This document shows, piece after piece, positions 3,751 to 62,200 of a DNA stretch of 64,000 bases. The position numbers and the translations under genes are program-made. Each line of letters opens with the position of its first letter. Positions within the stretch are counted from its first letter, which is position 1. A model generated the notes under the pieces. It ran no database searches and was not told where the DNA came from. It saw only the letters and a program-made list of their open reading frames with translations. The stretch comes from Mobula hypostoma (Eukaryota), in contig NC_086108.1 of the NCBI RefSeq assembly GCF_963921235.1, forward strand, positions 13,702,001 through 13,766,000, given 5' to 3'.

Positions 3751-5066
3751 AGGCTTATTATCACTGACGTACGTCGTGAAATGTGTGGTTTTGCGGTAGC
3801 GGTGCAATACATAAAATGATCAATACATAGTGCAAAAAGAGAGCAAAATGAGGTAGCGTTCGTAGATCATTCAGAGATCTAATGGCGGAAAGAGAGAAGC
3901 TGTTCCTAAAACATTGTGTGCGCGTCTTCGGAGTCGTGTACTGTACTTCCTTCTTGATGATAGTAATAAGAGGGCATAACTTGGCAGATGGGGGTCGCTA
4001 AAAATGGATGCTTCCGTTTTGAGGCACCGCCCTTTGAAGGTGTCCTTGATGGAGGGAGGCGAATGCCCAAGGTAAAGCTAGATGAAACCCCCTGAAGCTT
4101 TTTTTCTTATTATGTAGCAGCTTCCATACTTGACAGTGATACAATAAATCAGAATACCCTCCCCAGTACATCTGTACGTATTTTCTAGTTATTGGTGACA
4201 TAAGACATGGGAGCAGATTTGGGCCATTCAATCATGGCTAATGCTTCTTTACCCCTCCTCAGCCCCACTCCCCAGCCTTCTCCCCATAACCTTTGATGCC
4301 ATAACCAATCAAGAACCTATCAAACTCTGCCTTAAATACACCCAACGACTGGGCCTCCACAGCTGTCTCTGGTAATAAATTCCACAAATTCACCACCCTC
4401 TGGCTAAAGAAATTGCTCAGCATTTTTGTTTTGAATGGACGCCCCTCTATCCTGAGGCAGTGCCCTCTTGTCCTAGACTCTCCCACCATGAGAAACATCC
4501 TTTCCACATCTACTCTGTCTAGGCCTTTCAACATTAGAAAGGTTTCAATGAGATCCCCCCTTATTCTTCATCGAGTACAGACCCAGAGCTATCAAATGTT
4601 CCTCATATGATAACCATTCTCGGAATCGTCCTTGTGAATCTCCTCTGGACCCTCCCCAATGCCAGCGCATCTTTTCTTAGATGAGGAGCCCAAAACTGTT
4701 CACAATACTTAAGTGTGAAGAACACAACAGTGTTCATTGAGGAGTTAGCAATGGTAAGGGTGAGCAGCTTCAAGCTGAGTGTCAGCTTCTCAGAAGGTCT
4801 ATCCTAGGCCCAACAGAAGAATACTTAAGGTGAGGCCTTATAAAGCCTCAGCATCACATCCCTGTTCTTATATGCTAGACCTCTTGAGATGATTGCTAAA
4901 ATTGCATTTGCCTTCCTCACCACTAACTCTACCTGCAAGTTAACCTTTAGGTTGGTCTGCACAAGGATTCCCAATGTTACATGCCTCAAGGAGATTTTTT
5001 CTTTTTTTTTGTATAAGTTGTTAAAATTTTCTTCTTTAAGAGACCAAATTTTTTTTTGGAGGGAGG

Positions 5067-5946
5067 TGTTACATGCCTCAAGGAGATCCGTGTTTTTTTG
5101 TGAGAATGATGTAATGGTCTTTTGGAGGTCACCTGATGTAATTTTCCCGCCGATGTGAGGTCATGTGATGACATGTGCACCACGGGTATATAAGGGAAGA
5201 CCCCAGATGACACAGTTAGTTTTTAGTTTTTAGATTTCCAGCTAGAACGTACTGTGTCTCTGTTTCTGTTGCGTATTTGTTTTTATGACGCAGTTTCATT
5301 TTTAAAACGGTTGTACGTTCTGTTGCAAGGTACAATATTACTGGACTGGAAATTTTTGGCTAGATGTGCTGATGTACCTTATTCCAGCAGTAGAAGAGAG
5401 AGTGAAGACTTTATCAAAGTACAGGATCCGAAGGATTGAGAGGAGTCGGTATCGTTCGGCAGTTTAACAAAGGATCGACCTTATTGAGTCTTTGTTGAAG
5501 GAGTAGTGACCTGCATCAACGATAACTCTTGCCAAAAGAGCAAGGAGTTCATGCGGGATTTGCTCTCTAGAAGAATTTACAGTCAGTTGTATTAAACTGT
5601 TTATTTTCGGCATGGTGAATCCTGTGGACAGAACCAGCAGGAAAGTCGCTTCTATGAAGAAATCCTTCTCCAGAGAAGTCTCTCCCAACTGAACGTATAA
5701 GTTTGTTGGACTTTCGAATTTACCATTTTAAGAACCATATCTGACTTTACCACTTTAAGAACTGTTTTCACATTTAACGTTTTAAGAACCAGGGCCGAGT
5801 GACTATTTGTTGAACGGCTGCATAACGGTTAACTTCCAGTTAAGGTTTTTGTTTGTTTTTTTATCGTTTATCCGTGTTTAATAAATGTTTGGTTGTTTTT
5901 ATATAAACTGTCTCGATTGATATTCATTGTTGCCAGTTACGTAACA
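5067..5946 (+). repeat. 5' LTR of Gmr1-like element
   Basis: TGTTAC...GTAACA ends; direct repeat of 10804-11675, roughly 95% identical by eye; TATATAA and AATAAA inside. Confidence 0.95.
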
Positions 5947-5953
5947 TAATCTG

Positions 5954-5963
5954 TGGGGGCTCG
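5954..5963 (+). promoter_or_regulatory. Primer-binding site, tRNA-Pro type
   Basis: TGGGGGCTCG is complementary to the tRNA-Pro 3' end (CGAGCCCCCA); starts after a 7-nt gap from the LTR end. Confidence 0.7.
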
Positions 5964-8900
5964 CGGGAGATGTTCCGATTTTGAGTTTAAGTGCTGGTAA
6001 TTGCCATTTTTATTTGGAAAAGGAAACTACTAGTTTTTTTTTGTTTGATTGGTGTATGAGTGGTATTCGGCAACAATGACTATTGATAGGTTTATGGACA
6101 CGCCTGACGCGGGGTCTTTAGAGAATGCGAGAAAACCTGAGGTATTGAAGATTGCTGGGAGGTTGGATATTAAAGGAATTACAAAGAATTCCACCAAGGC
6201 TTTCATACAAAGAAAAATCGCTGAGCATTATATAACTTTGAAACTGTTTGATGAAGAGGTGTTAGATAGGATTCCAATGAGTAATCTGGAAATGCAGTTA
6301 CATCTTGAACAGTTAAAGTTTGAAAGATTTAAAGCAGAAATGGCTGAAAGAGAGGCTAATAAAATAAGGGAATTTGAAGAAAGAGAAGCTGAAAACCAGA
6401 GGAAATTTGAGCTAGAGATGCAGAAATTAAAGTCCAGGAATCAGTCTTCTGGTTCTACGAAACAGTTTATTGCTAGTCGTGTGGTTATTTTGGCTCCTCC
6501 ATTTAATGAAGCTGAAGTGGACAAATATTTCCAGCATTTCGAAACTGTTGCTCTAAGTTTAAAGTGGCCGAAAGAGCAATGGCCAGTGATGTTACAAAGT
6601 GTAATTAAAGGCAAGGCACAACAAGTTTATACAGCTTTAAATGCTGATCAAGCACTGGATTATGATATTGTTAAGCAGCATATTTTAAAGGCATATGAGA
6701 TGGTTCCGGAAGCATATAGAGAAAGATTCAGAAATTTGAAGAAATCTGTGGAAAAAACTTATGTGGAATTTGTCTATGAGAAGTCTGTTTTGAGAGATGG
6801 GTTTCCTCTAAAAATGTGAATGGGGGGTATAATAAATTAAAAGAGTTGATTTTGCAGGAGGAATTTAAAAGAAGCATTACTGTTGAAGTGAGAACATACT
6901 TAAATGAACGGGACACTGCTACATTGCAGGAGGTTGCTAAATTAGCTGATGAGTATATTTAATTCATAAGAATAAATTTTCTCCAGGTAAAACTTTTAAA
7001 AGGAAAAATAGCACAAAGAGTCAAGGTAAACCAGAAATTAGACCTGAAGTTAGTGAGAAAAGTAAGGATGAAGGGAGACATGTGAAGGAAAGACATTTTG
7101 GTATTAATTGTAATTATTGTAAGAAACCTGGACATGTAGTAGCTAATTGCTTTCGATTGAAAAGGAAAGAGAAAGAAGTGGCCCCAGATGCTTGTGTGCA
7201 GCATATTGAAAAACCTGTAAAGCCACAGGGTTCAGAAAATATTAATGAAGATGTGTCAGAGTCTGACCAAGTTAAGAGGGGAGATGAAATTTTATAACAG
7301 AAGGATTTGCATCCTTGAAAGAAGGATCCAATTCAGTACCAATAAGGATACTTAGAGATACTGGAGCTTCTCAATCACTAATATTAGACAGTGCGCTAGT
7401 TTAGTGATGAATCTGACATTGCTGAGGTAAATTATATAAGAGGAGTTGGGAGTGCCCTTATGCCAGTACATTTACATAGAGTAAATTTAAGGTCAGGATT
7501 AGTTATAGGGGTTGTTAAAGTAGGACTACAATCCAGTTTACCTGTGAATGATGTTTCTCTTTTGTTAGGGAGTGATTTAGCAGGTGGACAAGTTTTTCCT
7601 GAAGTGCATTTGACAATAATTTCAAATTCTGAGGAACCACAGAGGGATTCTAACACAGATTCTTCCTGTGCTGTAACAAGAGCTATGGCTAAAAATACTG
7701 ATATACAGGTTGAGGTTGTTACCCATGATTGTTCAAATCAAGATTCAAATTTTGAGGATGTATCAGAAACTTTCTTACCTACACTGTTTGATCAGGATTT
7801 TGGTGGTAAATCTGACCAGAAAGATTTGTCTTTATCTCGGAAGGAGATGATAGCAGAGCAGGGTAGAGATCCTGAGATAGTTAAATTGAAAGAACAAGCT
7901 CTTCGAGATAGTGAAATTGAAAAAGTACCAGGAGGATATTATTTTGAAAATGGGGTATTAATGAGAAAGTGGAGATCGCCTACAATTCCTGCTAGTGAGG
8001 AATGGGAAGTTAATCATCAGGTAGTAGTTCCTAAAATTTACCGAAATGAGATTTTAACTATGGCTCATAGCATTCCTTTGGGTGGTCATTTAGGTGTAAA
8101 GAAAACTATGAACAAAGTTTCTAAACATTTTTATTGGCCTAGTTTAAGACAAGATGTGGCGACATTTTGTAGAACGTGTCATACGTGTCAAATTGTGGGT
8201 GAACCTAATCAGGTTACTCCAGTGGCCCTACTGCAACCAATTCCAGTATTCAGTGAGCCGTTCTCAAAAATCATTGTAGACTGTGTAGGTCCTTTGCCAA
8301 AATCTAAAACTAGACATCAATATTTATTAACCATTATGTGCACAGCGTCTAGGTTTCCAGAGGCAGTACCTCTTAGGAATATAACAGCCAAAACTGTGAC
8401 AAAGGCTCTTATAAAATTCTTTACTTATTTTGGGTTGCCTAAGGAAATACAATCAGATCAAGGTAGTAATTTTATGTCTGGGTTGTTTCAGCAGATAGTT
8501 TATAAACTGGGAGCAAAACAGATTATTTCATCAGCCTATCATCCAGAATCACAAGGAGCCTTGGAGAGATTTCATTCTGCACTAAAAACTATGATTAGGA
8601 CATAATGTGTGGAAAATGAAAAGGACTGGGATGAACGTATACATTTACTACTTTTTGCAGTACGAGAGGCAGTACAGGAATCGTTAGGTTTTAGTCCTTT
8701 CGAACTTGTGTCTGAGCATAGAGTTCGAGGACCTTTGGCCTTGTTGAATGAACAGTGGATTAATAAAGAAGTACACACTAATTTGCTGGATTATGTTTTA
8801 GATTTTAAAGAAAGATTGTATAGAGCTTGTAGCTTGGCCAAGGAAATTTTAAAGTTAGCTCAAGAGAAGATGAAGACTTGGTATGATAAGGAAGGTAGGA

Positions 8901-10803
8901 TAAGGTCATTTAAACCTGGAGATAAGGTATTGGTTCTTTTCCCAGTGCAAACGAACCCATTACAAGTCAAATTTCATGGTCCTTTTGAGATTAAATCTAA
9001 AGGAAATGATGTAGATTACGTGGTAAACACCCCAGATCGGAGAAAGACAACACAGCAAATATGATAAAACCGTATTATGAAAGAGAAGCTGCTACTATGA
9101 CTGTTGTGATTAATAATGAGTCTGATCTTGATAAAAACTTAATGGAGGATTCATCTGAAACTCAGTTTAGACCCAACATTATTTCAACCAGGTTACCAAA
9201 TTCAAAAATTCTAGAAGATATTGATGAAAAATTAGTTCATTTACAGCCAGAGCAGAGAGAGCAGATGAAACAGTTAATTTTTAAATATAGAGATTTATTT
9301 CCAGACGTCCCTAGAAGAACCACCGTAGCTACGCATGATGTAGATGCAAAACCCATGAAACAACATCCCTATCAAATGAACAGGGAAAAATGTGAACTTG
9401 CTGAACAAGAAATTAAGTGTATGTTAGAGAATGATGTTATTAGACATTCTAATTCGAATTGGAGTTCACCGTGTGTTATGGTGCCTAAGCCAGACCATGG
9501 TATTAGATTTTGTACGGATTACAGAAAGGTGAATGCTGTGACAAAGACCGATGCATAGCCAATGCCTAGGGTAGATGATTGTGTGGATAAAGTTGGACAG
9601 GCCAAATTCCTTACAAAAATTGATTTGTTAGAAGGTTATTGGTGTGTTCCATTGACAGATTCCATTTCAGCATTTGTAACCCCATCTGGGTTATATAAAT
9701 ATAATGTTCTTTCATTTGGGATGAAGAATGCACCAGGTACTTTTCAGAGGATGATTAATAGTGTGATTCACGGATTAAAAGATACAGATGCCTATATTGA
9801 TGATTTAGTTACAGGAAATAATACGTGGAAAGCGCATATTACTGCGGTGGAGAAACTATTTGAGAGACTTTCAAAAGCTAACTTAACTATTAACTTAGCT
9901 AAAAGTGAATTTGGTCATGCCACAGTGACTTACCTTGGTTATATTGTGGGTCAGGGAAAATTAGCACCTGTTCAAGCAAAAGTTCAGGCAATTTTAGAAG
10001 TACCCACTCCAACTGGTAGAAAAACTCTCAGAAGATTCTTGGGTGTGGTAGGATATTACAGAAAATTTTGTAAGGATTTTGCGAACATTGCTCTTCCATT
10101 AACTAATCTCTTGAAGAAAACTAAAAAGTTTGTTTGGACAGAGTCTTGTCAGGAGGCATTTGGTAAATTGAAAACTATAATATGTAGTCAACCTGTACTT
10201 AAATCTCCTGACTTTGAAAAACCATCTTCATTAGCTGTAGATGCTAGTGATGAAGCTGCAGGAGCAGTGTTACTCAAAGAGATGATGGTGATGAAGTTGA
10301 TTGTCCGGTAGCTTATTTTTCTAAGAAATTTAATGCCCATCAAAGAGATTATTTAACAATAGAAAAAGAATTGTTATCTCTTGTTTTAGCTTTACAACCT
10401 TTTGAAGTGTATGTTGGTACTACTCATAAACCATTCACAGTTTATACCGATTACAATCCGTTAGTGTTTTTGAGTAAGATGAAAAACAAAAATAGAAGAT
10501 TATTAAATTGGAGTTTAATTTTACAGGAGTACAATATTTTGATCACTCATATTAAGGGTAAAGATAATGTGATCGCTGATTGTTTATCTAGATGTTAAAT
10601 GTACAATGAAAATTTGTTTTTTATGGAGTGGTATTTTAACATTTGTAACACTCCTACTGTATATTAGTTTGTAAAGTGTTGAAAGGTGAGACTGTATATA
10701 TTGTGTATGTTGTAAATTTTATACCTTTGTATTTTTTTCTCTTTTTTTTGTATAAATTGTTAAAAATTTGTTCTTTAAGATACCAAATTTTTTTGGAAGG
10801 AGG

Positions 10804-11675
10804 TGTTACATACCTCAAGGAGATCTGTGATTTTTTTTGTGAGAATGATGTAATGGTCTTTTGGAGGTCACCTGATGTAATTTTCCTGCCGATGTGAGGT
10901 CACGTGATGACATGTGCACCACGGGTATATAAGGGAAGACCCCAGATGACGCAGTAAGTTTTTAGTTTTTAGATTTCCAGCTAGAAAGTACTGCGTCTCT
11001 GATTTGGTTGCGTATTTGTTTTTATGACGCAGTTTCGTTTTTAAAATGGTTGTTACGTTCTGTTGCAAAGTACAATATTACTGGACTGGAAATTTTTGGC
11101 TAGGTGTACTGATGTACCTTATTCCAGCAGTAGAAGGGAGAGTGAAGACTTTATCAAAGTACAGGACCCGAAGGATTGAGAGGAGTCGGTGTCGTTTGGC
11201 AGTTTAACAAAGGATCGACCTTATTGAGTCTTTGTTAAAGGAGTAGTGACCTGCATCGACGATAACTCTTGCTAAAAGAGCAAGGAGTTCATGCAGGATT
11301 TGCTTTCTAGAAGAATTTAAGGTCAGTTGTATTAAACTGTTTATTTTCGGCATGGTGAATCCTGTGGACAGAACCAGCAGGAAAGTCGCATCTATGAAGA
11401 AATCCTTCTCCAGAGAAGTCTCTCCCAATTGAACGTATAAATCTGTTGGACTTTCGAATTTACCATTTTAAGAACTATATCTGACGTTACCGCTTTAAGA
11501 ACTGTTTTCGCATTTAACGTTTAAGAACCAGTGCCGAGTGACTATTTGTTGAACGGCTGCATAACAGTTAACTTCCAGTTAAGGTTTTCGTTTGTTTTTT
11601 TATCGTTTATCCGTGTTTAATAAATGTTTGTTTGTTTTTATATAACCAGTCTCAACTGATATTCATTACGTAACA
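10804..11675 (+). repeat. 3' LTR of Gmr1-like element
   Basis: Preceded by PPT GGAAGGAGG (10795-10803); 10-bp deletion near its 3' end relative to the 5' LTR. Confidence 0.95.
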
Positions 11676-23760: not shown

Positions 23761-25011
23761 AAATACATTTTCTTACAATGAACACTTGAATTAAATGTTT
23801 GTTTTGAAACAAATGCCTTCATTTAATGTGATCATCAAACTGTTGGGATTTAAAAAATTCAAAGCACATGGTCCATTCATGTCCTTTAGGGAGGGAAATC
23901 CCTATCCTTACTCAGTCTTCAATACTACTACAGAAAGGTCTTTAAAATTACAGCCAAATCCAGTACAACTGGGTGCTTTATGAAGGGCTCACTGTTTCAA
24001 TTAAAGGCCTGAGGTTGTGCAAGGACACAGAGGCAAAGAGATGGAATCTGAATAACCGATCAGACTGACCAAGACCTGTGGCTGAGGTCATTGTTACAGG
24101 TACACAGTAACTTGGGAGATTATCTTTGACTAACTTTTTGAAGGAGCCACCCAACACATCAGGATGAGGAGGAGCTTAGGAGACAATGGCGACTGCTTTG
24201 CTTGCATCTTCAGAAACAGCTCTATTTCCATCTTTAACATCTCTATTTTCCCCTTTCAGGGTTCTTCTGAAGACCCTGACCTGGAGTTACACATTGACTT
24301 CAGTTCTTTGCAGGAATGGGACCTGCCCTTGGGGTTTCACGACTGGCCGTTATTCGATATGCCTAGGATGTGGCCTAACAGCTTAGCTTGCCTTCGGAGA
24401 TCTGGGATCGCGTGGCTCTGGAGATGGGCAGACTGAAGGGTCAGTGTCTCTGCAGGAATCCGGGGAGTCATGGGAGATGGAAGATCGAAAGCAGCAAGCT
24501 GGCTGCGTGCCCAGAGACCAGAGTTCTTTGGGCACAGAGCTCGGAAAAAGCGATGCAACAGACTTTTAACATCATAAATCAGCGAGTTGTTTGTCATGTA
24601 TCCCCTCTTGCCCTGAAACAGGATAAGGTTATAAGGGAGAAAGCAAGCCTGTGGTGTGTTGAATTACCTGGTGAACAAGTAGTCTTTGGGGTACTGTAAG
24701 TCTGTGTCTTTGCTGATGCTTTGCTGCATGCTTGAGTGCTCGATGGGTGGGGGGGGTACTGATGCTTTTTTTTGCTGGTGGGGGAGGGGGGATTGTTGCT
24801 TTGCTGCTGCTTACATGTGGGAGGGGAGAGATGGGGGGTTTTGGGGTTCTAACATTTAATTGTTATTCATTCTTTGGGGGCACACCTCTGTTTTCCTGGA
24901 TGGTTGCAAAGAAAAAGCATTTCAGGATGTATATTGTATACATGTCTCTGACATTAAATGTACCTTTGAAACACATCCTAAATTGCTGTTGCTCAGACAC
25001 AGAAACTTTAC

Positions 25012-25158
25012 CTGAGAGTGCTTCTCCTCGCTGCAATACTTCTTCAATATTGGCCACCATTATTCTCTGCACATCTTGTAGCTCTGTGTTTATGGAGCCA
25101 AGGTTTCTCCGTGCTCTGCTATCAATATAGGATTTCTTTGTTTTCTGAATGTATGTGT
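25012..25158 (-). CDS. SEC22B: SEC22B exon 4
   Basis: ttcag|ACACATAC...TCAG|gtaaag; encodes (D)[48 protein letters not shown], including the NIE segment and R-SNARE Arg; 147 nt. Confidence 0.97.
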
Positions 25159-27689
25159 CTGAAAGAAAACATGAAAAGCAAAACTTAAGTTACATTTGAC
25201 AATCACCATCCATATAATCTGGCTCCTTACCACCCAGTCACCTCCCAGTTATCAGTTCAGGAGCGGAGATGTTCAGTGGTACGTGTAGAACATTCAATTT
25301 CAATCACAACCCCTCAGCAAATGAACCAATCCACACCCGCACACAGCAAGTCAACTTGCAGGTATGGTCAATAATTCCCAGGCAGTGACCATCTTGCAAA
25401 AATGCAAATCAAACCGCCAAACCTTGATATTCAAAGGTATTAACATTGCTGAGACCCCACCGACAACGTTCTGGGATTGAGTTCAAAAGTCAAGAGGTTA
25501 TGTCGCAACCTTATAAAATTCTGGTTAGGCCACATCCGGAGTATTGCAATCAGCTCTAGTCACCCCATTATAGGAAGGATGTTGAAGCTTTGGAGAGGGT
25601 GCAGAAGTGATTTACCAGGATGCTGCCTGGGTTAGAGAGCATGTGCTATCATGAGAGGCTGAACAAACTTGGGTCGTTTCCTTTCGAGCGGCAGAGGCTG
25701 AGGGGAGATCAGATAGAGGTTAATAAGGTCGATAGGTTTCAATGAGCTTCCCCTTATTCTTCTGAAGTCCAGGATGTCCCCGGAATCATTCTTTTGAATC
25801 TCGACTCTCTCCAATGCCAGCACATCTTTCCTTAGATAAGGGGCCAAACTTATTCAAAATACCTCAAGTACAGTCTGACCAATGCCTTGTCTCTCTCTCT
25901 ATTCTTCTGTACTCCCATTACTCTCCATGACATTTACATATCAGAAGTAAATCATTTTTATTCCTGGACAGAGTATTATTCTCTAGGGACATGCTGAAGG
26001 ACTCAGTCTCAAACATCAACAGTTTATTCCCTTTCATAGATGTTGCTGAGTTCCTACAATGTTCTGCATGTGTTGCTCTAGATTTCCAGAATCTCTAGTG
26101 TTACTTGGTTTGAAGGGTGTATAATTAAGGACAATTAAATAGGAAAACTAGCTTGGAGAAGACAATGTAGAACATGGAGGGAAAGCCATTGGGATAAGCG
26201 CTGAATGCTGGGAGACCTACAAAAGGAGCTGGGTGTAATAAATTAGCATAAGAGTAAGAGTACTGCAGCACAGAACAGGCTTTTCGGTCTATCTGGTCCA
26301 TGCCAAACTGTTATTCTGTTTAATCCCATCAACCTGCACCATGACCACTGCCCTCCAAACCAGTACCATCCCTGTATTTATCCCAACTTAAATGTTGCAA
26401 TTAAAACCCACATCCACCACTTGCACTAGCAGCTCATTCCACACTTGCACCACCCTCTGAGTGAAAAAGTTCCCCCCAGGTGCCTCTTAAATATTTTACC
26501 CTTAACCTATGACCTCTGGTTCTAGACTCTTCCCAACCCCACAGAAAAAAAGTCTGTTGCATTTACCCTATCTATATCCCTCATAATTTGTATACTTTTG
26601 ATCAAATTTCCCCTCATTCTCCTGTAATCCAGGGAATAAAGTCCTAACCTATACAACCTCAGGTCCTCAAGTCCCAGCAATAACCTTGCAAATTTCTCTA
26701 TACACTTCCAATTTTATTGTTACCTTTCCTGTAGGTAGGTGACCAGAACTGCTCACAATACTACAGATTAGGCCTCACCAACATCTTATACAACTTTACA
26801 TAACATCCCAACTCCTGTACTCGATACTTTGATTTATGAAGGACAATGTGCCAAAAGCTCTCTTTATGACTCTATCAGGTTAACCATATTGTCATCTACA
26901 TTAATGATCTGGAAAATAAGCAACAATAGGTCCAGCACTGATCCCTGTGGCACCCCACTAGCCATAGGCAACCATCGACTACCACTTTATGGTTTCTCCC
27001 ACAAAGCCAATGTCCCATTCAATTTCCTGAATGCCGAGCAATTGTACCTTTCAACCAGACACTCATGGCCTTGCTAATGTTCATGTGGACAACATCAACT
27101 GTCTTGTAGACCCCAAGATGGTGCTATGCTTTGTGGGCAGCTTACAAAACTTCTAAATTTACTTCCTCTGAAGTACTCTCATGCAATCTGCAGCTTGCAA
27201 TTTACCTTTAAATTATGTACTTCTGAACCATCTTAACGAACAAGCGATTTCATGATCTTCTGAAGGACTTTGTGACTTACAGTACCTACAAAGAGTATTC
27301 ACCCCCCTTGGAAGCTTTCATGTTTTATCGTTTAACAACATTGAACTGGATGGATAGGACTGCTGATTTGGCAAAGCCAAAAGGTGCCGGGGGGGGGGGT
27401 GCGCTCTGTTATTTATGATAAACTATTTGAAGTGCTCGGACACAGTGTTCTTGTTGCCCTCGTTTCCCTGACCTGGAACTTCTAATGATTAAGTGCCGAC
27501 TGTTCTACTTACCAGGAGAGTTCTCCTCCATGATCCTGACCGAAGACTGATGTTAGGCAGGCACTCGAAATGTTGAGTGCCACCGTCAGCAAACAAGGAA
27601 AAGCCGAACCAACACTGTTCAAATTATTGTCTGGCTTCTTTGAAGAAATCTTTGCCCAGTTATGATCAATGTATCACCTACAGCACGGC

Positions 27690-30075
27690 TTAAAGTCAGC
27701 ATGGTTTCCTTAAGGCAGTGGTCCCCAACCACCGGGCCACAGAGCATGCGCTACCGGGCCGCGAGGAAACGATATGATTTGGCGATAGGAGTCAGCTGCA
27801 CCTTTCTTCATTCCCTGTCACGGCCACTGTTGAGCTATTACGCATGCGAGGTCATTACCCGCGTGTCATCCATGTCAGCACGGGAACAGGATCAACTCCT
27901 CGAGCTTGCCAATGACGGCGGGCTGAAAAGTACGTTTGACATAACATCTCTGCCGGCATTATGGATCAAAGTCAAGGCTAAATATCCTGAGATAGTCAGG
28001 AAAGCACTGAAAACGTTGCTTCCATTTCCAACGTATCTCTGCAATGAATGCAACGAAAACTAAATTGCGGAATAGACTGGACATTAGGAACCCCGTTCGA
28101 GTATCGCTGTCTCCCATCACCCTTCGATAGGACCGTCTTGTTGCAGTAAAACAATCCCAGGGCTTCCACTGATTCAGCGATTATTGGTGCGTTGCAATGA
28201 TTTTATATGTTCATACGGGGAAAATATGTGCTGCGCGTTTAATATCCAAACGATACTTAAAATGTTATGATGCTATTGACTTATATAACTATATAACAAT
28301 TACAGCACAGAAACAGGCCATCTCTGCCCTTCTAGTCCGTGCTGAACGCTACTCTCACCTAGTCCCACTGACCTGCACTCAGCCCATAACGCTCCATTCC
28401 CTTCCTGTCCATATACTTATCCAATTTTTCTTTAAATGATAATATCGAACCTGCCTTTACCACTTCTACTGGAAGTTCGTTCAACATTTACTTCAAGCTC
28501 CCCTGATAATTGACTTATCACTATATTCATGCGAGGAAAATATGCGCTGTGTGTTTAATATTAAATTCGTTAGATAAACCCTTTTAGAAATGAAATTGAG
28601 TGTATTAGCTAATTATCATCTATATTCCGGTCGTGATTAACACCCCCCTGAACAGAATCGCCAAAAACGATTTGCTGAAAAAAAAAATCGTACACGCATG
28701 CGCGCTGGTGCCCGTGCAAGGCTTCATGGTCATTGTAGTCTCTCTCGGGGTAAACCCAGTGTATTTGACTGCTACTCTTGTCCATTGACAACCCTACTCC
28801 CCCACCCCGGTCAGCCGGTCCGCAAGAATATTGTCAATGTGAAACCGGTCCGCAGTGCGATAAAGGTTGGGAACCCCTGCCTTAAGGGAAAATCTTGCCT
28901 GACGAACAAGTTGGAATTCTTTGAGGAGATCATATATAGCTTAAAGGGGTTGCAGTGGATGGTGTATATTTGGACTTTCAGAAGGCCTTTGACAAGGGCC
29001 ACACATGAGGCTGCTTACCAAGTTAAGAGCCCATGGCATTACAGGAAAGTTACTAACATGGTTAGAGCACTGGCTGATTGGTAGGAGGCAATGAGTGGGA
29101 ATAAAAGGTTGGTTGCCAGTGACTGGTGGTGTTCCCCAGGGGTCAGTGTTGGAACCGCTTCTTTTTATGCTGTATATAAATGATTTAGATGATGGAATAG
29201 ATGGCTTTGCAGGTGATACAAAGACTGATGGAGGGCCAGGTAGTGTTGAGGAAACAGGTAGGCTGCAAAGGACTTAGACAGATCAGGAGAACAAGCAAGA
29301 GAGTGGCAAATGAAATACAATGTTGGAAAATGCATGGCAGACACTTTGGTGGTAGAAATAAATGAGCAGACTATTTTCTAAATGGGGAGAAAATCCAAAA
29401 ATCCGAGATGAAAGGAACTTGGGAGAACAACCTAAAGGTTAACTTGCAGGTAGAGTCAGTGGTGAGGAAGGCAAATGCAATGTTAGCATTCATTTCAAGA
29501 GGTCTAGCATACAAGAACAGGAATGCGATGGTGAGGCTTTATAAGGCATTGCTGAGGCCTCACCTTCAGTATTGCGAACAGCTTTGGTCTCCGCATCCAA
29601 GAACCAATGTGCTGGAATTGGAGAGGGTTCAGAGGAGATTCACAAGGATAATTTTGGGAATGAAAGAGTTGTCACACTAGGAATGTTTGATGGCTCTGGG
29701 TCTGTAAAGGATGGGTGGGGGGGATCTCATTGAAACCTTTCGAAAATTGAAAGGCCTATATAGAGGATGTTTCCCATGGTGGGAAAGTCTAGCACAAGAG
29801 GGCACAGCCTCAGGATAGAGGGGCATCCATTTAAAACAAAGATGCAGAGAAATTTCTTTAGCCAGAGGATGGTGAATTTGTGGAATTTATTACCACAGGC
29901 AGCTGTGGTGGCTAGGTCCTTGGGTCTAATTAAGGAAGAATTTGATAGGTTCTTGATTGGTCACAGCAACAAAGGTTACGGGGAGAAAGCTAGGGAGGGC
30001 TGAGGAGGGAATTAAAGGATTAGCCATGATTGAATGGGCCAAAAAGCCTAATTCTGCTCCTGTCTTATGGTCTTA
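27690..30075 (+). mobile_element. 5'-truncated CR1 (RT to tail) interrupted by the hAT element
   Basis: SQHGFLK|GKSCLTN continuous across the hAT TSD; GVPQGSVL; TCTTATGGTCTTA tail. Confidence 0.85.
27716..28879 (+). mobile_element. Non-autonomous hAT (Charlie/Buster-like) transposon
   Basis: TIRs CAGTGGTCCCCAACC / GGTTGGGAACCCCTG; 8-bp TSD CCTTAAGG (27708-27715, 28880-28887); hAT dimerisation-domain remnant LWIKVKAKYPEIVRKALKTLLPFPTYLC; embedded CR1 tail ~28285-28477. Confidence 0.9.
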
Positions 30076-30828
30076 CACCACCAGGAGATCTAATACACTA
30101 AACTACTGCTATATGACCATAAGGAATGTCTACCTTTCAATCCCTAGATCGCATTTTGGGAAATCTGACCATTTGGAGGATCATCTGATCCTCCTACCTC
30201 CACAAAGGCAGAGGCTAAAGGGCACGGCTCCAGTAGTAAGGACAACAAAGAGGTGGTTGCAGGAGGCAGAGAAGCAGCTGTGGGATTGCTTCTAGTCAGC
30301 AGATTGGACTGTGTTCTAGGACTTATCAGAGGATCTGAATAACAGTTGTCACAGACTTTTTAAAACAGTTGTAGATGAGTGTGCTCCCATAAAATCTTCC
30401 CCAACCAGAAGCACTGGATGAGCCATGAGATCCACAATCTGTTTATGGCCAGATTAATGGCATCCATGTCTGGAAACCAAGTAAAATACAAGAGGTCCAG
30501 GAACAGTCTCCAGAAAGCCCTCTCACATGCAAGGTGGCAATTCCATACCAAATCTGAATCATTGAAGGATGGTCAACAGTTGTGGCAAGGCTTGAATGCT
30601 AACAGCTCCTATAAAGTGAAACCGAGTGAAAAAGGTGACAAGAAGGCTTTGCTCCCAGGTGAGATCAATGCCTTTTATGCTTGCTGTGACCTTCAGAACA
30701 TGGAGGCACAACTTGCATGCCATATCCCTTGCAATGAAGCCATCTGAAAGCAAATTAAGAAAGATACTAGATGATGATACAACAGTCTCGATTCAGAACA
30801 CCATGAACCATTGCTCAACAGAGAACAA

Positions 30829-31390
30829 GCATTGGTGCCAACATCTGTGCCTCTGGTTGGGCAGCATATTGGAACAAGGAAGGACCGGGCTGCTCAGGGG
30901 AAGTGTGGAAATGATGAAAGCAGTGGTCTGACTACAACAGTTTTTGTAGGGAACATTATCTGAGAAAGCCTCTGATATGTTAAGCAGGCAGTGACTTGCA
31001 AAATCTGGCTTAGTTTTAAGCTCGAAGGAAGTTCAAGGAGCTTCAGGAAAGTTATAAGCATTCAGCTTTTGTGAGTATAAAGAACCAGGATCTACTCTGT
31101 GTGCATTAACGTTATTGGATGAACTTTAAGTGAGAAACAAAAAACTGCTTGTAAAAGTAGATGCAAAGACCAAAGGCCAGCTGGATGAATGGAAGGCCAA
31201 AAAGAAAGGAGTCAATAAAGATACAAAACCAGAGGATTTATCATCAGCTGATATTGTGGATGAGGAAACCAAAAGGAGAGAACAGATCGTAGGGGGAGCA
31301 ACGAAAGGATCAATAAGAGAATACTCCAGTGAACTAAATGAACCTTCCCAAGATCAAGATGCACAAACTAGAAGAAAAAGGAAGAAGAAA
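30829..31390 (+). pseudogene. RBM25: RBM25 processed-pseudogene fragment (RRM and flanks)
   Basis: ALVPT...TTTVFVGNI/SEKASDML.RQ*LAKSGLVLS..VQGASGKL*AFSFCEYKEP.STL.AL.LL.EL*V..KKLLVKVDAKTKGQLDEWKAKKK...DEETKRREQ...IREYSSELNEPSQ; +1 frameshift near 30958; stops at 30992, 31055, 31127; no introns. Confidence 0.9.
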
Positions 31391-31949
31391 CTACTCTCAG
31401 AACTACTTCCTGCTGTCTCAGAGTCAACTCCCACAACCACCACAGAGGCCTTAGAACCAGAAATTGTTTCACAGCCACAAGTCTCAACTGCCATGCAGAG
31501 CGAACCCCTTTATCAGTAAAGACATTATTCCACAACAGTAAGAATCATCCACAACAATTAAATCTTTAGGTCTGAATGGGACAATTTAAAATTTACTATG
31601 GTGTGGATATCTGTTTATAGTAGTCGTATTATATAATATACTTTGTATAGAGTTGAGATGTGTTCTCTGTTGAGTTGGATTTTATAGTTAAGCAGGGAGG
31701 AATGTATTTAATATTTCAGTAATATTTGGGTAATCTTGTATATATATTGTTTGATTAAGCATTCTTGTTTGTTTAAATAATTCATTAATGGTTATATGTA
31801 TACGAACATGAATTGCATATACTGTATGTCCTCACACTACCACGTGATACATATGCACCTTGCTTAAAGTAAACATGACGTTAGGCACACATTTTGGACT
31901 CTGTCTTCCCTTGAATTAGTTTAATGTTTCAAAGATACAAAACATAACA
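31391..31949 (+). mobile_element. Gypsy LTR retrotransposon 3' end: pol tail, PPT and LTR (31703-31949)
   Basis: Low-complexity pol tail ending Q*RHYSTTVR (RRYP.R.R-like); purine tract AAGCAGGGAGGAA directly before TGT...AACA. Confidence 0.75.
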
Positions 31950-32900
31950 CCCTCCAGTTCAGGTGGAAACTGTGTACAGGTCCTACCTGCCATGGAAGAC
32001 TGCCCAATGACTCAAAAATGTGAAGCTCTCCCTTCTGCACCATCTCCTAAGCCGTGTGTTAAACAGTATTATCTTCCTATTTCTAGCCTCACTAGCACAT
32101 GGCATAGGTGCAATCTGGAGATCATCATCCCGTCCTTTAGCTTTGCTCCTAACTCCCGAACTCACTTTCCAAGGCCCCGTCAACCTTCCTGCCTTTGCCA
32201 TTGGTACCAACGTATGCACAATCTTTGGCTGCTCACCTTCCCCATTAAGAACGCTATGGACTGAATCCAGGATGTTTCTGACCCTAACACCTGGGAGTCA
32301 ACATACTATCCGGAGATCTCATTCTCATACAAAAAAAAAATCACCTATCTGTCCCTAGTGCTCGCCTCTTCTCCTCCCTTCCCTTCAGTCACAGAGCCAG
32401 ACTCAGTGCCAGAAACCTGAATGCTTGGCTTTGCTGCTATCCAAAACAATATACTCATTATTGAGGCAAACGTCACAGGCATATCCTGTACTGGCTGCCT
32501 ACCCTCTTTCTCTCTTCTGATGGTCGCTCAGTTACATGTCACCTTAGGTGTAACAACTTCCCTGTAAATCCTATCAATCACCTCTCCATTTCCCGTATGA
32601 CCCAAAGGTCATTCAGCTCCAGTTGCAGTTCCCTAAAGTGGTCTGTAAGAAGCTGCAGTTGTATGACCTTGTAGGTGTGGCAGCCAGCGATACCGAAGGT
32701 CTCTCTGCCTTCCCACATTCCGCAAGAGGAGCCCTCCAATGTCCCGACTGTCATTCCCACTGCTTTAACTGGGCAGTAAGCAAGAAAGAAAGAAACTTAA
32801 CAGAAGCTTACCTAAACTTTCACCTCTTCTTGCCAAAGCATCCTGATCCAAAGCCTCAGCTCCCCATTCTAACCCTGGCACATTCTAACAATGGCTGCTC
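31950..32900 (-). mobile_element. CR1 5' region / ORF1 remnant
   Basis: CGMWE...LQLLTDHFRELQLELNDL..IRE; WCRRESFTFLSHW. Confidence 0.7.
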
Positions 32901-33326
32901 CTACAATGGTCGTTTGGTTTAAAACTAACTTCTTTCTATTAGTCCTTGCCAAATTCCTAATTATCCATACAATCTCAAGCTCTGAAGAAAGTCCCAACAG
33001 GTCCCGTTCACCTTCTTAACCTAGCATGTTACTCTCTGCAAGTAACTGTCCTGCAATCGCAAACTCCACAGAAAACCCCAACTTCAATTTTAAATCTGGT
33101 CCACTACTCTCCAAAAGTAATTGTCTCGTGATCTCAAATTCCTGAAAAAAATCAAAAGAATGTGGAATGCTTAGACTAATTTTCTTTTTAAATAAAATTA
33201 AAGCTTCCCTTCTAAAAGTCTCACCCTCACTGAACACCTATAAACCGAACAAGGAGGCAGCTAGGTGTGAGTGACAAGAGAGGCGATTGCAAATAAAAGA
33301 GCAAGACCAGGGAATGGTACACTCAC

Positions 33327-33487
33327 CAAATTCAATGAACGAGTAAGGGCGGGAGACTGTTGGGACTTTCTTTCCATGCTGCTCGTCAAATTCTGCCTGC
33401 AGGTCCTCAAGATACGCAAAAGCCAGTTTTTTTGAATATGATGCATCACATAAGACCAAATAGCAGACACCTTTCTCTATCACATAG
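33327..33487 (-). CDS. SEC22B: SEC22B exon 3
   Basis: acag|CTATGTG...TTTG|gtgagt; encodes [53 protein letters not shown]; 161 nt; phases fit exons 2 and 4. Confidence 0.97.
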
Positions 33488-53224: not shown

Positions 53225-53727
53225 CTGAAAGAAACAATGGATTGGGTTGAGCAAAGATGAAATAAGGAACGTTTAATTCAAACTGTACTAGTGCCAGCTC
53301 CATATTGTTTGCAGCACCACTTTAACAGACTTCGCACTCAACATTATGCAGATGTTCACTCGCTGTATTGGGTATTTATATTTCTCCATGATGACAAGTA
53401 CTTACACATCTCAACTTTTTTCTCTAATCTTTTATAGGACGGAAGCGTTGCTACTCTGGCCAAAATTTATAGCCCATCACAAGATGGTGGTGAACAAATC
53501 AGTGGTAAAGTACTACCTAACCAGCTTCACTGCAGGAATTCCAGGATCTGGATCTGGATTTGGATCCTGTGTCGGTAACAGAGAGCAATGATTGCATCTT
53601 GCTCCAGTCTAAAGCTTCTCTCCTCACTGTTAAGCACATGAGTAATCAGGTCCTTCACGGTAAACTGGCCCGAAAAGTTAAAGCGCAATGGGTCCAAGTA
53701 AGATGACAAACTGGATTCAAGACTAAC

Positions 53728-53972
53728 ACATACAAAATGCTGGAGGAACTCAGCAGGCCAGGCAGCAGCTATGGAAAAGAGTACAGTCGACGTTTCGGGC
53801 CGAGACCCTTCGGCAAGACTGGAAGGGGAAAAGAAGCAGTCCTGCTGAAGGGTCTCGGCCTAAAACGTCGACTGTACTCTTTTCCATAGCTGCTGCCTGG
53901 CCTAGTGAGTTCCTCCAGATTTGTGTGTGTATTGCTTGGATTTCCAGTATCTGTAGATTTTCTCTTGTTAGT
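53728..53972. mobile_element. Penelope-derived fold-back mini-element
   Basis: Inverted arms around a short spacer; 14-bp TSD GATTCAA(G/A)ACTAAC (53714-53727, 53973-53986). Confidence 0.85.
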
Positions 53973-61559: not shown

Positions 61560-62200
61560 AGATGCGTGAACTGGCGAGCTGAACAATGTACGTGAGTGAG
61601 AGGGAGAAGACAAGGTGCAGTGCGGACAGCGCTCGGTCCCAGTCTCGGGCAGTGACGTGGCCCGGCGGGACAATGAGTGGGACTGAGGCGGGGCTGTTGT
61701 CGGGCCCAAACTGGGCCACCACCGACCCGTCCTGGGCAACCGCGTAAAGTCAGGAGGGGCCGAAGGGCCAGCTCTCACCTGCTCATCCTCTTGCATGGAG
61801 GCAGCGAGCGGCAGGCCGTCGGCCACCCGGGCGATCATCGTCAGCAGCACCATCGTGGGTAAGTTCCCCCACCGGCCCGCAGCTGGGCCGTAGGCTCAGG
61901 TTCTCCTGGGGACGCGCCTCGGCCGGGCTGGGACGCTCTCGGCCTCAGGTTCTCCGGGACACGAGCCTCTCCTCGTCGGCCCGGGATCTCCGAGTGTCCA
62001 GGACCAGGCCTCGAACTGAGCTTCTCCTGGGTTCGGCTTCGTGCTGCGATGCCGTCACCAGCAGAGGGAGCGGTTGCGGGGACGGACAGGGGGCGGGGGC
62101 GGGGCAGGACTTCTCGTCGGCCGCCCGGGGTCTGATCCCGATCCCGACCCCGACCCCCCGCTCCCGGCTGTGGGGGGCGAGTGCTGATGGGATCAGTGAA
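61560..62200. promoter_or_regulatory. CpG island / SEC22B promoter and exon 1
   Basis: CpG-dense; tandem GC boxes GGGGGCGGGGGCGGGGC near 62089-62105; TGACGTGG at 61653-61660. Confidence 0.75.
61779..61853 (-). CDS. SEC22B: SEC22B exon 1 (coding part), vesicle-trafficking longin R-SNARE
   Basis: [25 protein letters not shown] matches the SEC22B N-terminus; donor CAG|GTGAGA with GT at 61778-61777; lies in a CpG island. Confidence 0.97.

Follow-up and report, generated by a model that had tools for sequence, protein, structure and literature searches.

The window analysed here (the whole stretch of DNA, 64,000 nt) holds one dead, front-truncated copy of an abundant family, in which a decayed, intron-less piece of RBM25 mRNA is embedded in the sequence of an LTR retrotransposon (Table 1). 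Taking together the three routes by which the chimera could have arisen, namely template switching, splicing-in or LINE insertion, we hold it almost certain that this is a chimeric, amplified family. The route that we regard as likely is an LTR-mediated capture by a double template switch, followed by non-autonomous spread in trans.

Table 1. Features of the RBM25-bearing element and of its host gene, in window coordinates.
Feature	Position	Strand	Remarks
SEC22B-like gene	~20300-61900	-	covers most of the window; exon frames near 61835, 33330-33450, 25010-25158 and 20413
SEC22B-like gene intron	25159..33326	-	exon frames and GT/AG borders read from the sequence
Pol-like internal remnant	30706..30787	+	open frame; approximate start; LINE-like fragment adjoining upstream
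41-bp linker between pol-like piece and RBM25 homology	30788..30828	+	no RBM25 match past chance extension; no self-match in the window
Decayed intron-less RBM25 mRNA piece including the RRM	30829..31390	+	residues ~53-240; protein search and tblastn
Pol-like C-terminal tail	31391..31570	+	in frame with the RBM25 piece; stop 31517-31519; likely 1-bp loss near 31542
3' untranslated internal sequence	31571..31688	+	repeat depth 80,595 in bin 31571-31629 of run X1
Polypurine tract	31689..31702	+	directly before the LTR
3' LTR, 247 bp, TG...CA	31703..31949	+	loose-end pile-ups at both edges in 4/4 runs

Identity and decay of the RBM25 piece

The read-through of 30962-31390, with X at the stops, matched 223 of 853 candidate proteins with a best E of 1.8e-47. 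Among the 120 of these 223 matches listed, every named protein was RBM25, the rest being unnamed or hypothetical RRM proteins, and no cartilaginous-fish RBM25 was found. When the same 120 proteins were compared with the window by tblastn, matches were obtained only between 30,000 and 32,000, in two segments, 30832-30957 (frame 1) and 30950-31390 (frame 2), corresponding to residues 54-240 of a mammalian RBM25 with 60% and 66% identity, respectively; the tblastn check proposed in an earlier note on this DNA, run here against the window, thus matched 30832-31390 only. Pfam returned no match for the RBM25 read-through or for the flanking LINE-like frames, and a PDB search gave nothing significant.

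The piece is disabled by one frameshift near 30957 and by stops at 30992, 31055 and 31127. As neutral decay at 8-16% divergence predicts 1.5-2.7 stops, with P(>=3) between 0.20 and 0.51, the three stops fit such a process. The homology ends at residue ~240 of ~840, so that ~600 C-terminal residues, the 3' three quarters of the mRNA, are absent, and no poly(A) follows, its 3' end having no A run longer than 5. The earlier note had described 30829-31390 as a decayed RBM25 RRM region with one frameshift, three stops and no poly(A) tail, and both the protein search and the length of the A runs agree with that description.

Intron positions were taken from other vertebrates. In L002, a metagenome contig carrying vertebrate genomic RBM25, an exon starts after AG at residue 182 and ends at GT after residue 243, and at the 181/182 position (31220) the window sequence is not interrupted by any intron. 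Between KLQ and A (window 31058), a 5-residue insert is seen in five fish proteins; it is the mark of an alternative donor and therefore of a second intron, also absent in the window. The exon border of L002 and the breakpoints of the fish isoforms support the predicted loss, from the window piece, of two or more introns that lie inside this span in the RBM25 of other vertebrates, in line with the earlier proposal of an intron-less retrocopy of a multi-exonic segment.

The carrier element

On the 5' side of the RBM25 piece, ESKLRKILDDDTTV occupies 30746-30787 and falls in a repeat bin of high depth (30745-30803, depth 13,387 in X1); judging from the reading frame, the start of the pol-like text may be near 30706 instead of 30744. 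By resemblance, 30706-30787 is the putative protease-RT linker of gypsy pol. Because of the 41-bp linker that follows, this pol-like piece and the first RBM25 segment are in different frames. On the 3' side, frame 2 continues from RBM25 into a 43-codon low-complexity tail rich in Ser, Thr, Pro and Glu, up to its stop, and the loose ends that precede 31557, translated in this frame, give R/Y-P-x-R-x-R-x-P-P, a motif that we assume to be typical of vertebrate gypsy pol C-termini. Protein searches with the 5' pol-like piece and with the tail, both short and biased queries, gave no match, a negative of little weight. Therefore, where the earlier note had read gypsy pol text at 30746-30787 and an in-frame run from RBM25 into a gypsy pol tail, the sequence, its repeat depth and the in-frame run hold, whereas the gypsy assignment obtained no protein match.

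The LTR was delimited more sharply. Loose ends pile exactly at 31703 and at 31949, the three DNA runs having 698, 694 and 709 contigs at the former and 356, 331 and 367 at the latter, so that both edges are exact, and the depth reaches ~200,000 in X1 bins 31689-31806; the purine tract ends at 31702, which confirms the earlier reading of a polypurine tract followed by a TG...CA LTR. The loose ends also suggest that most LTRs of the family have five extra letters at the 5' end compared to the window copy. Behind 31949 the loose ends begin with a motif, at an agreement of only 0.38-0.41, that may weakly resemble a tRNA primer site. A pattern search with the LTR yielded one chance 22-mer in viral contigs (L001, with no further similarity) and 0 matches in metagenomes.

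Self-comparison of the window revealed no second LTR, gag or protease, and the RT, RNase H and integrase domains are absent from the window copy. A search upstream of the element for sequence continuing the 3' flank found none, so that neither the 5' insertion site nor the target-site duplication survives. The observed TG...CA ends and polypurine tract, together with the resemblance of the flanks to gypsy pol, would fit a Ty3/gypsy-type carrier.

Copies in three organisms

Four runs were aligned to the window at 80% likeness: three DNA runs from three organisms (A, B and C) and X6, which is presumed to be RNA; none of the runs listed as sharing sequence with the window is registered as RNA. 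Over the RBM25 part, the summed depth in X1 was 4,372-65,619 compared to 18 for the own contig of the locus, with the reservation that summed depth is not copy number and is inflated by overlapping short contigs. At the RBM25 sites listed, 67-127 distinct contigs per site (counted to 128) carried another letter in each of the three organisms. The window copy stood apart at two of its three stops, where 73-118 contigs in each DNA run, and no less than 85% of the depth, read differently; therefore, those two stops are not family-wide.

The alignment produced 81,961 pieces in all, and the piece-level results that follow come from the longest 32. All 23 DNA-run pieces on RBM25 ran across an intron position, with 31 letters or more on either side; 16 did so at the first position and 9 at the second. 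They are thus intron-less copies and not the parent gene. Identity to the window copy averaged 83% in 24 of the 31 RBM25 pieces (of the 7 left out, most were gap-rich), a mean biased by the 80% floor and by the divergence of long contigs. Five pieces ended at a common edge, 31383-31386, and one X6 contig covered 31068-31430 at ~83% identity. No contig bridging the 5' junction was found among these 32 pieces, and one X5 piece had 71 unaligned letters upstream of 30842; the 5' ends may differ among copies of the family.

A joint between RBM25 and the tail, 31376→31467, was present in all four runs (3, 1, 3 and 3 contigs, with a shorter side of 27-78 letters), and a second variant, leaving RBM25 at 31390, was detected in X1 and X6, although repeats can produce such joints at 80% likeness. 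The joints 31376→31467, 31444→31558, 31448→31543/31557 and 31390→31550 indicate that, in other copies, sequence between the end of RBM25 and the tail has been deleted or replaced in several ways, from which subfamilies with different 3' junction regions within 31390-31557 can be distinguished.

For organisms A, B and C, the depth of RBM25 relative to that of the tail was 0.59, 0.57 and 0.57, and their depth profiles correlated at 0.98-1.0; this constancy across the three suggests that the family spread before they split. The X6 ratio, 1.84, would fit an added contribution of parent mRNA in this presumed RNA run. Organism B shares 0.34-0.40 of words with the window, and no orthologous insertion was found among its contigs listed. 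The earlier suggestion that the chimera may have amplified is supported by the high-copy RBM25 piece in three organisms and by the recurrence of the 3' joint in every run; the chimera spread as a family that probably reached hundreds of copies or more.

Origin of the chimera

In the capture that we favour, a Ty3/gypsy-type LTR retrotransposon would have co-packaged a spliced RBM25 mRNA, and reverse transcription would have switched template onto this mRNA and then back, with ~560 nt of RBM25 coding sequence taking the place of RT, RNase H and integrase. The chimera would have retained its cis signals (LTRs, primer site and purine tract) and, mobilised in trans by intact relatives, have reached hundreds of sites or more while the three sampled organisms still shared an ancestor. 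The copy in the window would have inserted antisense into the SEC22B intron, later losing its 5' half and decaying as a neutral relic, with its truncated 5' side now abutting a LINE-like fragment. Within this account, we infer the gypsy identity, the template switching, the trans mobilisation and the timing. As the RBM25 piece is cut at both ends, lacks poly(A) and replaces internal sequence, its structure matches that of the retrocopies in the sections of Tan et al. 2016 (PMC5131818) used here. The LTR-mediated retrocopy put forward in the earlier note is thus supported by the intron-less partial mRNA, the missing poly(A), the recurrent 3' joint and the LTR.

The same amplified chimera could have formed with a spliced 5' junction, in the manner of oncogene transduction by retroviruses, a route described for them in the portions of PMC4299795 and PMC9143442 available to us. 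The element would then have sat upstream of or inside RBM25, with a pol donor joined to the acceptor of the residue-53 exon and only the 3' junction owed to a template switch. This would account for the start of the RBM25 homology at an exon edge, namely the codon at which three database proteins swap their N-termini, just before VLVPT/VLLPT, and for its end 3-4 codons inside an exon, before the L002 donor that follows residue 243. However, the coincidence with an exon edge is drawn from distant proteins, the 41-bp linker may be diverged RBM25 upstream sequence, the X5 piece differs upstream of 30842 and the bases before 30829 end in AA instead of the usual AG of a donor exon, and we consider splicing-in unlikely. 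Its extension, in which the RRM cargo spliced in at the exon acceptor was kept in frame with the pol tail under purifying selection during the spread, is very doubtful.

Similarly doubtful is insertion by a LINE enzyme, in which an RBM25 cDNA, primed internally and truncated at its 5' end, would have entered a non-autonomous LTR element that had already suffered its deletion and was amplified afterwards. The window is rich in LINEs, the RBM25 piece ends in an A-rich purine run, and a 7-mer occurring at 30793 and at 31397 (31397-31403) could be a target-site duplication, but this 7-mer lies 29 and 6 nt away from the homology edges and is shared at chance level (such a match arises in 7% of shuffled sequences and in 9% of pairs drawn from the window), and poly(A) is absent.

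Still less probable are many independent RBM25 processed pseudogenes or segmental duplicates, of which the window copy would lie beside LTR debris by chance. A single piece among the longest 32 of 81,961 spans the 3' junction end to end, and 14,081 retrocopies have been counted in cartilaginous fishes, with non-mammalian retrocopies attributed to CR1/Tx1 in the sections used here of a 2026 preprint (10.64898/2026.06.26.734816). Independent events are nevertheless hard to reconcile with RBM25-to-tail joints in 4/4 runs, with five pieces sharing the edge 31383-31386 and with a depth ratio constant in three organisms; moreover, LINE retrocopies start at the mRNA 3' end, and here the 3' three quarters are missing. 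The scenario with which the earlier note would have been overturned, a separate LINE-type retrocopy next to an LTR, is unlikely on the same grounds, together with the lack of poly(A). A circular RNA template, considered as the piece roughly spans whole exons, was rejected since no back-splice sequence precedes 30829.

Host gene and surrounding repeats

The RBM25-bearing LTR element lies antisense within an intron of a SEC22B-like gene, the exon frames of which match Pfam Longin (E 6.8e-19) and synaptobrevin (E 1.9e-6). Upstream of the element, 27230-30706 consists of nested repeats, in which a LINE-like element is split by an insert at ~27715-28880 and a fragment at 28880-30070. We take the insert to be hAT-like, the fragment to be a CR1 3' fragment and a remnant near 27290 to be a short Tc1-like terminus; repeat comparison of the window also revealed what are presumably CR1-like LINEs and SINEs, which give it the look of cartilaginous-fish DNA.

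A near-complete LTR retrotransposon is present at 5068-11667 (+), in which integrase precedes RT/RNase H (Pfam rve, RVT_1 and RT_RNaseH), a Gmr1-like domain order. It is nested within a CR1-like LINE and contains several stops and frameshifts, and the direct repeats at 4995-5928 and 10733-11667 share 94% identity. As ~75 bp before the 5' LTR are included in the repeat, a remnant of a tandem element is suggested. This retrotransposon was considered as a relative of the RBM25 carrier and found to be unrelated (tblastx best E 0.2). Elsewhere in the window, a SINE-like repeat forms two inverted pairs, 924-1190 and 53725-53933, with arms of 123 and 97 nt and spacings of 21 and 15 nt, which have the potential to form long hairpins. 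An Rfam search of the whole window gave 0 matches.

Previous reports and significance

No report of an RBM25-carrying retrotransposon was found in the literature searched; repeat libraries may contain an entry for the family. None of 9 supplementary files of Tan et al. (PMC5131818) mentions RBM25, shark or skate. In the sections used here of the 2026 preprint with the count of cartilaginous-fish retrocopies (10.64898/2026.06.26.734816), which credits CR1/Tx1, SUDS3 is among the top parents and a terminal exon junction is required; RBM25 is not named in the corresponding main text, and its supplements may list it. The consulted portion of a batoid genome preprint (10.64898/2026.10.27.761883) mentions neither RBM25 nor retrocopies.

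The mechanism is a known one, and it is the scale of amplification that seems to lie far beyond the published cases: LTR-borne gene captures have been reported with one to about ten copies, against probably hundreds or more for the RBM25 family. Cargo-bearing chimeras could thus become major repeats in a vertebrate, and so many natural replicates would allow the capture to be dated and the cargo to be tested for selection. The terminal-exon-junction rule of 10.64898/2026.06.26.734816, as worded in the sections used, would filter out an internal piece like the RBM25 copy, and full-length cargoes of LTR elements could be miscounted as independent retrocopy events. If the cargo was selected, this would be a gypsy lineage that replicates with the help of an RNA-binding domain taken from its host, in packaging, export or splicing control, and the RBM25-bearing elements would make up, by depth, roughly half of all elements with the same pol tail.

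Comparison with known systems

With a LINE-made processed pseudogene, the RBM25 piece shares the condition of an intron-less, decayed gene copy, but it has no poly(A), misses the 3' part of the mRNA, is embedded in LTR-element sequence and has a 3' junction common to several copies.

Closer parallels are found among LTR elements that carry host genes. In the portions of PMC4299795 available to us, the crocodilian CrocERV29 carries KIT-ligand in nine copies and CrocERV31 carries nectin3 in six; both are, like the element described here, ancient vertebrate LTR elements that captured a host mRNA and multiplied, and nectin3 replaced a viral gene. Those elements are retroviruses with intact ORFs under purifying selection, whereas the present one is gypsy-like (by resemblance), with the pol core replaced and the ORF broken. 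Maize Bs1, as treated in the sections of PMC5131818 used, is likewise an LTR element with host exons that was recopied with shared switch points; it has 1-5 copies, three parental genes and a reported functional protein, in contrast to the single parent, the probable hundreds of copies or more and the dead window copy of the RBM25 family.

The closest match is with the LTR-mediated retrocopies, or pseudo-LTR retrotransposons, that the same sections of Tan et al. 2016 (PMC5131818) describe from fly, mosquito, zebrafish, chicken and mouse as well as human. As in those cases, a partial spliced mRNA cut at both ends replaces part of the internal ORF, poly(A) is absent, the insertion is intronic and secondary retroposition has taken place. 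Microsimilarity at the switch points is the key signature there. As to shared switch points, the 3' joint recurs here in 4/4 runs; as to flanks from one family, the 3' side leads into the polypurine tract and LTR, and the 5' side is a repeat by depth that may belong to a gypsy element. The window copy has no 5' LTR, so that its formal membership is incomplete, while one-sided loss of LTR remnants is also seen in the older cases of that study; in its manner of working, the RBM25 element behaves like an LTR-mediated retrocopy. Unlike those cases, with one or few sites each (nine fly retrocopies account for 18 sites), the RBM25 cargo is a high-copy repeat in three organisms.
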